Positions 1-3,000 of a stretch of DNA of 53,597 bases are shown one piece after another (position 1 is the stretch's first letter; each line of letters opens with the position of its first letter). Source of the DNA: Candidatus Micrarchaeota archaeon (GTDB lineage: Archaea > Micrarchaeota > Micrarchaeia > Micrarchaeales > CABMGC01); assembly GCA_028867135.1 (NCBI GenBank), contig JAGWGW010000001.1, forward strand, positions 1 through 53,597, read 5' to 3'. The position numbers are program-made.

Positions 1-3000
1 GATAGGGAAGAACGGACTGGTAGTGAAGCCTGTGGAAAAGGTCTATGGGTAGGACAGCTGTTTCCACAGCGCGTAGTTGGGGGTTGGGATGAACATATTT
101 GAGAGGTTCTTACTTTCGAGAGAGGTGACTGTCAGGGAGGGGGAGATAACCCTGGATCAGCAGAGGGTCATAATGCTCCCAGTGAATTTTATAGCCTCTT
201 ACACGCTCAAGCTCGCCAACGACAAGGCCGAGGGCAGAAAACTGTACGAAGCCATGAAGAAGGGAATGTTTGCCTTCTCGATACCGCTTGGCAAGGCGTA
301 CGGTCTTTCTTATAAGGACTTTTTGGACAGATGGATCAAGTACAACGCGTTTGCAGGGTGGGGCATAGTAGAGTACCAGTTGATAGAGACGGATACGACG
401 CGCGGGTTCCTTACATACAAGAACCTGACGCTGCATTTGTACCTGAAGGGCAAGGGCATAACAGAGCATTCGGACAGGCTGCTGGAAGGCATAATCGCCG
501 GGGCGCTGTCAAGCACCTTTAAGGTGGATATCGACGCTGTGGAAACCAAATGCGTATGCTCCGGAAATGACGTCTGCGTTTTCTATTGGGGGCCAAGAAG
601 CTATCTTAGGAAGGAGTTTCCTGAGTTGATATCGAAGTGGTAATCGTATGAATTTCTTTGAAATGCTTATAATGAGCAAGAGGATGTCCTTCGAGGACGG
701 AACTGTGACCCTGTATGGCGAGAATGTCCTGATCATCCCTGCGCCGAATATCGTAAAATACATATGCATGGCAGGCGCCAACCAAGGAAATGGTAGGGAC
801 ATGTATTCCAGGGCCAAGGCAGCAACGCTTGAGTACAAGCAGGACCTTGTGAAGGCGTACAAGTCTGGTGGGGGCATGTCATGGATCATCAATACCATCA
901 ACCTGTATGGCTTGGGTAAAGCCACATACCAGGGCGCCAGCAATAGCCTGCCTGCGGGAGTAATAATCCTGGAAAACTCGCCTTTTGCCCACAACCCAGA
1001 TTGCAAGGCTGGTGCGCCCATTGATCATGTCTTGCGTGGCATAATAGCAGGCATGGCCTCAGCGATATTCAATAAGGATTTTGACACGATTGAGTTGAAA
1101 TGCGCTGCTGCAGGAGGCGATTCGTGCAAGATCATCATAGACTCTAAGAAGAACCTTATGAGGAATTTCCCTCAATTCTATGAGGATCAGATATAGCGTC
1201 GATTACCAGGTGTCTGTCTTCATCTCGTACGCCTTTTCTATGTACTCCCTCTCCTTCAGGAACCTGACGGTGTCTATTGATTTGATCTCGTTTGCTATCT
1301 CTTTGAGCAGTTGGTAGTAGTCCTGCCATTGCTTGATTATTTTCTCCTCGAATTTCGGATACCTGGTTTCCCGCTTAAGCATCTTGTTGAGCTTGAACTC
1401 TATGCCGCCCTCGTGCTGTTTGATGAATTTGAGAACGGCCTCGCTTGACATGTCCGACTCTATCAGCTCCCTCGGATAGGTTCCCAATACGTTACCTATT
1501 CTTGCCATTTTTTGGGAGATGTAGTTGAGCTGCCGCAACATGGCAAGCTCTGAATCGTTGAATCCCTTGGAGCACATCAGGTCGAGATCCATCTGTATCA
1601 TGATTTGCATGCCGTGCGGCACGTAAGCGTCGTTCTCGATCACATTGGCAACATTTTCATCCTCGTTTACGAATTTGCTGTATCTGAGCGCGTTCAGGAG
1701 CTGCATTACGTCGAAATCGAAGGATTTCTTGTACCTCTCGTATTTAGGATACCTCCTAATTTCGCCCATCAATGAATTATCCCATATCTCCTTGGTTATG
1801 TCCAGGTACTTCAGCTCATCAGCGTTGAGTTTTGATCTGTCTATGTGCTCTGCCTCAAATGGAATTTTAAACAGTTCGTCGAAAAGTTTGAAGTTGCGCA
1901 TGTCCGCGTTGTCGATCAGGTCGTCTAGCAGGACTTCCCATAATGCAAATTCCGTTTTTACGACCGCGAGGGAGCCCATATACAGTGGCTCTACAGTTGA
2001 CAAGCTGCAGTTCTCAAGGACGCGCAGGGTCCAGTCGAACATGCTTTCGTCCCTGCGCCCTATCTGAGCATATTTTTCAACTGTGCCTGAGAGATCTTTG
2101 ACGAGATCTTCGTGCCTTGCCACGATCTCTGGCCTCAGGACCGTTTTAGGAAAGCCCTGCGAAGGGTATCTTTTCATGAGTATCACTCGTTTGACTGATA
2201 AGAAACCTCTGCTACACACACCTTCCCGATTAGATAATTGTAGCGCAATTAATATAAAATCACAATCATAGTCCTATGAAGGGACAGGTAGATGTTTTGA
2301 AGCACATAGGAAGGTTCTGGAGGGAGGTAATACTGGGCATATTCTTCCTGGACGGCCTGTTCGCGTCGCTGCAGATAAACCCGCTCGGCTCCGTTTTCCA
2401 GATGTTCGACAGCACCACCGCTCAGCTCAACCAGACGATTGGGACTCCTGTTGTAGATAGCTCAAGGATATACGTAATCGCTTCTATAATCTTGGAGGTG
2501 ATAGGGGTTGTGATAGGGCTCATCGTGGCTGGATTGCTGGGCCTGATAGCGATAGCCATCGCCTACGGTTCCGGATACCTGCTTCTAGGCAATCCTCTGA
2601 TAGGCATTGCCCTGTTCGTCCTGTCCGCCATATTCCTGTTCCTCGGGCACAGAAACAAGAACAAGAAAAGGCTATACGACGGCAAGAATGGAAAGATTTA
2701 AGTATTTTTACCATAAAATAGTAATTTATGGAAAGCTCTGTCGTAGTGATGGATGACCAGGGGAGGATATACCTGCCGAAAAAGGTAAAGGAGGGCATGG
2801 GCAGGAGGTTCTTCGCGTTCAAGATGAGGGGAGAGTTGATACTGGTGCCTATACCCGAGGACCCGGTCAAGGACCTGCAGGAGCAAGGAAAGAAACTGCC
2901 GAAGAATATATCGATAAAGACGCTCAGGAAAGAGGCATACGAAGAGGCAATGAAAGAAGCGATGTCGAACGTTGAGAGGCTAGAAAAACTCAAGAAATCT

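Follow-up and report, generated by a model that had tools for sequence, protein, structure and literature searches.

Analysis of a 53,597-nt stretch of Candidatus Micrarchaeota DNA (hereinafter, the window) revealed a cassette in which the gene of a predicted class I terpene synthase converges on two genes encoding stand-alone V4R sensor domains, which are preceded by the gene of a KaiC-type ATPase. This suggests an undescribed archaeal system that likely makes and detects a lipophilic isoprenoid molecule. Every part of the cassette is of a known kind, and it is their combination that was not found in the literature searched. Beside V4R genes the synthase can be exchanged for other prenyl enzymes, i.e., the system is not terpene-specific.

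Three ORFs predicted in the initial annotation were confirmed at positions 89–643 (+), 648–1196 (+), and 1203–2177 (−). The first encodes V4R-1 (184 aa), a stand-alone sensor domain of the PoxR/MopR/DmpR type assigned by a Pfam match and predicted fold, and the second its stand-alone paralog V4R-2 (182 aa, Pfam match), 27% identical to V4R-1. The third encodes the enzyme of 324 aa, whose class I terpene-synthase fold is predicted from structure modeling and motifs; its gene and that of V4R-2 are convergent, and 6 bp separate their stops. The placement of the KaiC gene ahead of the V4R genes, proposed from a contig overlap, also held. Contigs C22 (+), carrying the KaiC ORF (G000:C22:2012-2812), and C31 (+) overlap by 149 nt, and the linkage does not depend on this join alone, because positions 2–52 (+) of the window code for the last 16 codons of KaiC and its stop. 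A type 1 isopentenyl-diphosphate isomerase (IDI) gene at 5467–6033 (−), with TIGR02150 and PRK03759 matches above the cut-off, serves substrate supply and lies outside the conserved cassette. Besides IDI, genes of an HMG-CoA reductase and a polyprenyl synthase were identified in the genome (G000; 0.96 Mb, 94% complete), so the prenyl substrate should be available.

For the 324-aa protein no Pfam match and no NCBIfam name were found, and searches of PDB sequences with the synthase or its profile as the query gave sub-threshold matches only. Its AF2 model (30 sequences; pLDDT 89.5, pTM 0.90) matched best the all-alpha isoprenoid-synthase fold of 7e4o (Z 20.8, rmsd 3.1, 259 aligned residues), followed by cubebol synthase (Z 20.4) and selinadiene synthase (Z 20.3). 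The N-prenyltransferase DabA was level with these cyclases (Z 20.4), and polyprenyl synthases scored lower (Z ≤ 17.4). The ESM Atlas values given earlier (terpene-synthase clusters at 0.93–0.96, TM 0.73–0.87) were reproduced, and the fold proposed in the initial annotation is borne out by the model together with the presence of both metal motifs. Alignment places the first Mg-binding motif, DDxxDN (D85–N90), at positions 1908–1925 (−), and the NSE/DTE-type motif N229-x3-T233-Y-P-R-E237, comparable to residues 221–229 of the archaeal enzyme A0A5E4I9B1, at 1467–1493 (−); the metal triad comprises D85, D86, and D89 with N229, T233, and E237. The residue following N229 is not Asp, and the same is true of A0A5E4I9B1.

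Amongst close homologs, the closest named of which carry Micrarchaeota as their source label, DDxxD is present in 29/29, DDxxDN in 28/29 (the earlier count having been 26 of 29), and NxxxTYxRE in 28/29. Across 81 aligned family members, R42, D85, D86, N229, T233, and E237 are conserved at 95–100%, and 54 of 80 members have the modal R-to-D spacing of 44, as does the window synthase. The TWxRE motif occurs in 114 of 149 representatives, and the distance between the D and N motifs, 144 residues in the window synthase, ranges from 132 to 146 across the alignment. A trans-isoprenyl diphosphate synthase was considered and rejected, as the protein has no PF00348 match and carries NxxxTxxxE as its second motif instead of a second DDxxD; the sole PF00348 gene of the genome is localized on contig C17.

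Terpene synthesis in archaea is already known. Samusevich et al. (10.1101/2024.01.29.577750) reported activity of three archaeal synthases (A0A5E4I9B1, A0A0E3NXY0, and A0A537EJD0), of which A0A5E4I9B1 is a beta-bisabolol synthase that cyclizes FPP and has D67/D68, R24, D63, and an NxxxTWPRE motif; an enzyme with motifs matching those of the window synthase has been produced in E. coli and yeast hosts. The available text of that report mentions neither the genomic surroundings nor the physiological function of the archaeal synthases. The window synthase shares with them a single alpha-domain, the lack of Pfam annotation, DDxxD, and NxxxT[WY]PRE. Like A0A5E4I9B1, it has a conserved Arg 44 residues before the second Asp (R24–D68 there, R42–D86 here) and an acidic residue one turn ahead of DDxxD (D63 there, E81 here), whereas the D–N spacing is 154 in A0A5E4I9B1 versus 144 in the window synthase and 132–146 in its alignment. 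The exact published A0A5E4I9B1 motif occurred in no family protein compared. Placed by its motifs and R–D spacing rather than by direct alignment, the window synthase likely belongs to the archaeal group of Samusevich et al., and its N-terminal R42 may have the plant-type role that these authors describe (10.1101/2024.01.29.577750).

The synthase family comprises 619 representatives at 50% clustering, and 59 of the top 149 are at least 390 aa long. A domain scan of 69 representatives, mostly long ones, revealed fusions to DXS/transketolase in many of them, single fusions to HMG-CoA reductase, a GGR-like domain, and DHBP synthase (one each), and PilZ and/or REC fusions in six. The terpene-synthase reading is strengthened by the presence of both metal-binding motifs, by their match to a tested archaeal enzyme, and by relatives fused to DXS and HMG-CoA reductase. 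The predicted reaction would be a Mg-dependent ionization in which FPP or GGPP yields a terpene or terpenol, for which beta-bisabolol formation is the precedent. Class I terpene synthases have a pyrophosphate-sensor Arg and a C-terminal RY pair. In the family alignment no conserved Arg was found where the usual motif would place the pyrophosphate sensor (H188 region), and R272–Y273 is conserved in the close clade only.

The Pfam matches of the two V4R proteins had E-values of 4e-6 (27 bits, below the cut-off of 31) and 2.5e-9. The predicted model of V4R-1 (pLDDT 91) matched the whole phenol-sensor domain of PoxR (5fru; Z 17.3, rmsd 3.3, 178 aligned residues) and of DmpR (Z 17.1), with MJ1460 (Z 12.4) and Bet3 (Z 10.9) scoring lower. 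A candidate metal site is formed by D129, E152, C155, and C163, of which E152 and C163 do not vary, C155 is conserved in 38/39 proteins, and Asp occupies the position of the first zinc ligand in 37/39. As modeled, V4R-1 is thus a full sensor fold of the PoxR/MopR/DmpR type with a zinc-type site, in which Asp replaces the first Cys of the zinc ligands known from DmpR (PMC7264223). The resemblance to these regulators covers the whole sensor fold (Z 17, TM 0.65–0.76), including the N-terminal swapped region, the E/C/C zinc ligands, and the coupling of the sensor to an ATPase. Unlike them, the V4R proteins of the window form a stand-alone paralogous pair (182–184 aa), have neither a sigma54 AAA+ fusion nor an HTH or other DNA-binding domain, and are accompanied by a KaiC/RecA-type ATPase encoded by a separate gene and by an adjoining gene for the predicted synthase of the cognate ligand. 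The phenol-binding His of the DmpR type was not seen in the V4R-1 alignment. The phenol cavity of DmpR measures only 24–36 cubic angstroms (PMC7264223) and could not hold a sesquiterpene, so that V4R would have to offer a wider pocket to a terpene ligand. Bet3, a V4R relative, carries palmitate according to the title of entry 6aq3, and V4R domains are thought generally to bind hydrophobic ligands and to signal in cis or in trans (PMC2253512).

The ATPase (PF06745, E 1e-50) is a single-domain protein of 266 aa with intact Walker A, Walker B, and KMR finger in the alignment. Circadian KaiC was rejected as an assignment, since that protein has two tandem ATPase domains and the TIGR02655 score was 88 bits against a cut-off of 546. 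The single domain and the adjacent input genes are features of the archaeal KaiC-like signaling hubs (Makarova et al. 2017, cited in PMC5847659); the cassette differs from these hubs, as described there, in that the input brings its own isoprenoid enzyme.

Synthase, V4R, and KaiC genes were found together at L001, L005, L007, L008, L009, L025, and L026/L027 (the last two being near-duplicates counted once). The cassette recurs at seven loci beyond the window, and one cassette comes from the unpublished genome G027. The recurrence in a second family, claimed before, was confirmed in G038 and G027. The synthase gene is tail-to-tail with V4R at every cassette (−10 to 19 bp apart) and on the strand opposite to the V4R pair in 8/8. 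In five cassettes KaiC precedes the V4R pair. The order is rearranged at the other three loci: in L005 and L007 KaiC lies ahead of the synthase, and L026 has KaiC on either side and a single V4R gene, which comes from another branch. Cassette members are 47–72% identical, and their flanks differ. Both V4R genes and KaiC accompany the synthase at five of its nine genome loci, and V4R and KaiC at all three metagenome loci; the remaining four genome loci are those of Nitrosopumilaceae, where the synthase copies have no V4R neighbor and no V4R match was found in the two incomplete genomes carrying them. Within 200 genomes of the order, the synthase was identified in six and an ortholog of V4R-1 (E < 1e-88) in six, both being present and adjacent in five (four of these matches are the same DNA as the genome loci and were counted once). 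In G052 the synthase is interrupted by a contig end, and in G199 (76% complete) the orthologous V4R pair is present with no synthase found. At the phylum level the distribution is patchy (6/400 genomes), with differing insertion sites; amongst the 301 genomes searched with the broad synthase profile in the phylum to which G423 belongs, G423 itself was the single match, the sampling outside Micrarchaeota being sparse. Toxin-antitoxin genes were also observed near cassettes.

A direct swap is seen between two close relatives, L025 and L066, the flanks of which share 85.5% nucleotide identity over 1.9 kb and 88.6% over 1.6 kb. Both loci have the same KaiC (93%) and mevalonate kinase (91%) genes. 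Between these flanks L025 carries V4R-1, V4R-2, the synthase, and four other ORFs, and L066 a single V4R gene and a UbiA gene, the V4R proteins of the two loci being only 29–30% identical. KaiC and the flanks are common while V4R and the enzyme differ; therefore, KaiC is generic, and the V4R-enzyme pair is a matched unit inherited together. A second swap is suggested by L005 and L076, the KaiC proteins of which are sisters (99%), with flanks that are not shared. In LuxI/LuxR and in the Bacillus ComQXPA pherotypes, synthase and receptor are likewise swapped jointly while the downstream transducer is conserved, a convergent orientation is found, and ComQ is an enzyme of the isoprenoid-synthase fold. 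The exchange between L025 and L066 resembles such quorum-sensing pairs in that synthase and receptor change together behind a conserved transducer, and departs from them in having no LuxR or ComP homology, no peptide substrate seen, and KaiC as the output.

Other prenyl enzymes beside V4R genes were counted when a UbiA or cis-prenyltransferase scoring above the Pfam cut-off was encoded within two genes of V4R. In the first set (20 regions representing 19 V4R loci, mostly beside KaiC, with G169, G187, and the unpublished G067 left out) such a partner was found at 11 of 19 loci (UbiA at seven and cis-prenyltransferase at four), and a mevalonate-kinase-like gene at two more. The later test set was drawn from 400 phylum genomes with 64 V4R matches and comprised 40 further regions (35 of the 43 newly matched genomes plus extra loci), of which 17 had such a partner (UbiA, 13; cis-prenyltransferase, 4). 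As background, an enzyme of this kind lies within two genes of 12 of the 1001 ORFs of G000 (1.2%), and a few percent would be expected in genomes richer in paralogs; related genomes in these locus counts are not independent observations. A strict prenyl partner is absent from 8/19 and 23/40 loci, some of which have mevalonate-kinase-like, GGR-like, or aldehyde-dehydrogenase/acyl-ligase-like genes instead, and the remainder of the 40-locus set also contains loci with a weak prenyl-like gene or no linkage, two at contig ends, and one with a disrupted gene. The prenyl-linked loci fall on at least eight V4R branches, two of which, at 99% support in a quick tree, mix partners.

The linked cis-prenyltransferase is an extra paralog in 4/4 genomes. 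The linked UbiA is extra in G114 and G101 and probably in G190 (one of these three was compared against fragments only), and is the only copy found in G145 (82% complete). PRK12884 scores of six linked UbiA proteins were 51–126 bits versus 211–227 for two putative housekeeping copies. Weak candidate partners were excluded from the strict counts: cis-prenyltransferase-like ORFs at L111, L117, and L124 (hhalign probability 2.9%, no HMM match), class-I-like ORFs at L064 (probability 4.7%) and at L126 (negative in the profile test, with an Atlas TM of 0.69 to a polyprenyl synthase cluster), and UbiA-like ORFs at L112, L119, and L122, with a match for L119 only (E 3e-4).

In the reading that we prefer, the predicted terpene synthase would form a small, lipophilic terpenoid from a prenyl diphosphate. 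V4R-1 and V4R-2 would bind this product, likely as a heterodimer, and their occupancy would be passed on by the KaiC ATPase through a V4R-KaiC contact in trans, analogous to the fused sensor-ATPase of DmpR. That V4R recognizes the product of its partner enzyme is the simplest explanation because it is swapped with that enzyme across three unrelated folds sharing only the prenyl-diphosphate substrate; in the window this ligand may be a terpene. Whether the enzyme product is indeed a lipophilic isoprenoid bound by a V4R dimer and relayed by KaiC we regard as evenly balanced. More speculatively, DPANN archaea could use isoprenoid signaling between cells or on contact with a host, with swappable enzyme and V4R "dialects" placed on a common KaiC switch. 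Within this extension, which we put forward only tentatively, the window would represent a terpene dialect, its synthase being encoded with its own receptor.

The main alternative is that the dependence runs in the opposite direction, with V4R sensing a pathway intermediate or an outside cue, and V4R and KaiC switching the enzyme as a regulated output. Six of the 69 scanned synthase relatives are fused behind REC/PilZ input domains, enzymes of the pathway occur amongst the V4R partners (mevalonate-kinase-like at L063 and L069, GGR-like elsewhere), and a matched V4R-enzyme swap would suit a regulatory subunit as well. However, the consistently opposite strand of the synthase in all eight cassettes, its occurrence without V4R in Nitrosopumilaceae, and the fact that the tested partner prenyltransferases are mostly spare paralogs, not core lipid enzymes, speak against this direction, which we consider unlikely though not negligible. 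It is improbable that the cassette is a purely biosynthetic unit, in which the V4R pair would be a carrier or tailoring enzyme, unloaded or energized by the ATPase, with no signaling: amongst solved structures the nearest matches are genuine sensors (Z 17 versus about 12 or less for others), and one V4R family serves unrelated chemistries. Consistent with such a unit are the nearly invariant D/E/C/C metal site, arrays of at least four V4R genes at L063, L121, and L128, and the description of V4R as ligand-binding or enzymatic (10.64898/2026.10.19.760177; PMC5847659, on the related ATC hydrolase). A conflict system, where the enzyme is switched on by stress or infection and its terpenoid product acts as an internal second messenger for V4R and KaiC, would agree with the patchy distribution, differing insertion sites, and neighboring toxin-antitoxin genes, and has a printed counterpart in the predicted V4R-asparaginase messenger system (10.64898/2026.10.19.760177); as a toxic effector domain was seen in no cassette, we consider it highly improbable. 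That counterpart, the nearest idea in print, similarly comprises an enzyme whose predicted product is a diffusible messenger binding V4R. It differs in its amide chemistry and fused effectors, and terpenes, prenyl compounds, and KaiC are unmentioned in the available text of that work.

The concern, expressed in the initial annotation, that the linkage reflects one transferred block without a functional tie has been largely answered by the rearrangements, the unrelated partner folds, and the direct block swap. Few genomes carry the cassette, and synthase and V4R distances across seven cassettes did not track each other significantly (rho 0.16, p 0.24; rho 0.33, p 0.09), as hitch-hiking would allow. 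Nevertheless, divergence to 47–72% identity with different flanks, changes in the side and branch of KaiC, replacement of V4R, and recurrence of the same logic with unrelated enzyme folds largely refute it, and little credence is left for it. Cutting across all these readings is the chemistry of the enzyme, which might be a prenyltransferase or form a linear prenyl alcohol or olefin instead of acting as a cyclase. The tie with DabA, the prenyltransferases amongst the other V4R partners, and the lack of a family Arg at the usual pyrophosphate-sensor position point in this direction. We think it unlikely, though by no means negligible, given an NSE/DTE-type second motif in place of a second DDxxD and a published archaeal enzyme with a near-identical motif that cyclizes FPP (10.1101/2024.01.29.577750).

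The literature searched contained no description of a linkage between V4R, KaiC, and a prenyl or terpene enzyme; the archaeal KaiC survey (Makarova et al. 2017) and the supplements of 10.1101/2024.01.29.577750 were outside its scope. The novelty earlier ascribed to a terpenoid system has to be shifted: archaeal synthases are published and the system is not specific to terpenes, and what was not found in print is the combination. The cassette joins three questions, i.e., the role of archaeal terpene synthases, the ligands of V4R, and the input to KaiC-like ATPases, which are putative signaling hubs. Being small and, by prediction, soluble, the four proteins allow product and binding to be tested without culturing the organism. 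The window stands out in this respect, as its enzyme resembles one of known product and the natural swaps of enzyme-sensor blocks provide cognate and non-cognate controls. Finally, retention of the cassette in a genome smaller than 1 Mb suggests that it functions in recognition amongst kin or between symbiont and host.

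Among the scanned representative relatives (P-numbers) of the predicted terpene synthase, many, including P0046, P0049, P0086, P0095, P0100, and P0111, carry DXP-synthase/transketolase domains preceding the synthase. The N-terminal scores of this part are often very weak, which suggests that the DXS portion of such fusions is decayed. A fusion with HMG-CoA reductase was found in one scanned representative; P0038, P0044, P0048, P0079, P0127, and P0139 represent PilZ-, REC-, and REC-PilZ-terpene-synthase fusions, possibly under c-di-GMP or phosphorylation control. Two Nitrosopumilaceae genomes encode two synthase copies each, without V4R (fetched loci L002, L003, L004, and L006); the copy at L006 is adjoined by a gene of an HxlR-like regulator.

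Other candidate enzyme genes accompany V4R elsewhere. An unannotated, candidate cis-prenyltransferase-like family (about 260 aa; L111:5087-5896, L117:5210-6046, and L124:4927-5694), whose DGNxR and RS motifs recall those of cis-prenyltransferases, is located beside V4R genes, and two class-I-isoprenoid-synthase-like ORFs of other families (L126:3089-3952 and L064:4833-5711) adjoin KaiC-V4R. At L109, L112, L118, L119, L122, and L123, V4R genes are adjoined by an aldehyde-dehydrogenase/LuxC-like gene (KaiC is present at all of these loci except L118), in some cases together with a PaaK/AMP-ligase-like or a very divergent UbiA-like gene. These loci may constitute an acyl-derived version of the cassette.

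Tandem arrays of four to nine stand-alone V4R genes (L121:4538-7762, L128:1313-7228, and L063:5630-7926) resemble a receptor repertoire; their neighbors are GGR-like or mevalonate-kinase-like genes and FIST genes. An unannotated family of about 370 aa (L086:308-1432, L069:2012-3142, L060:8028-9146, L008:9046-10149, and L134:2-895) is a candidate tandem V4R, as judged by eye, and in L086 and L069 its gene is localized between the KaiC and UbiA genes. The studied genome also encodes a 333-aa V4R-containing protein (C31:70195-71196, i.e., L024:4196-5197); in several Micrarchaeota, its gene is conserved immediately before one that is secY-like.

Members of a protein family that carries AsnC-like HTH domains (about 440 aa) are frequently encoded near KaiC-V4R (L008:10139-11467 and 10 other fetched loci). 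This family is a possible transcriptional output; however, in the studied genome it is present in three copies (contigs C26 and C6), none of them near the cassette.

The cassette itself is flanked by a VapBC-like pair (window 2728-3413), nickel superoxide dismutase together with the S26 peptidase for its maturation (3432-4283), and a RelE-like pair (4917-5396), and an unannotated, AT-rich (37% GC) membrane-protein gene is located upstream of KaiC (C22:478-1290).
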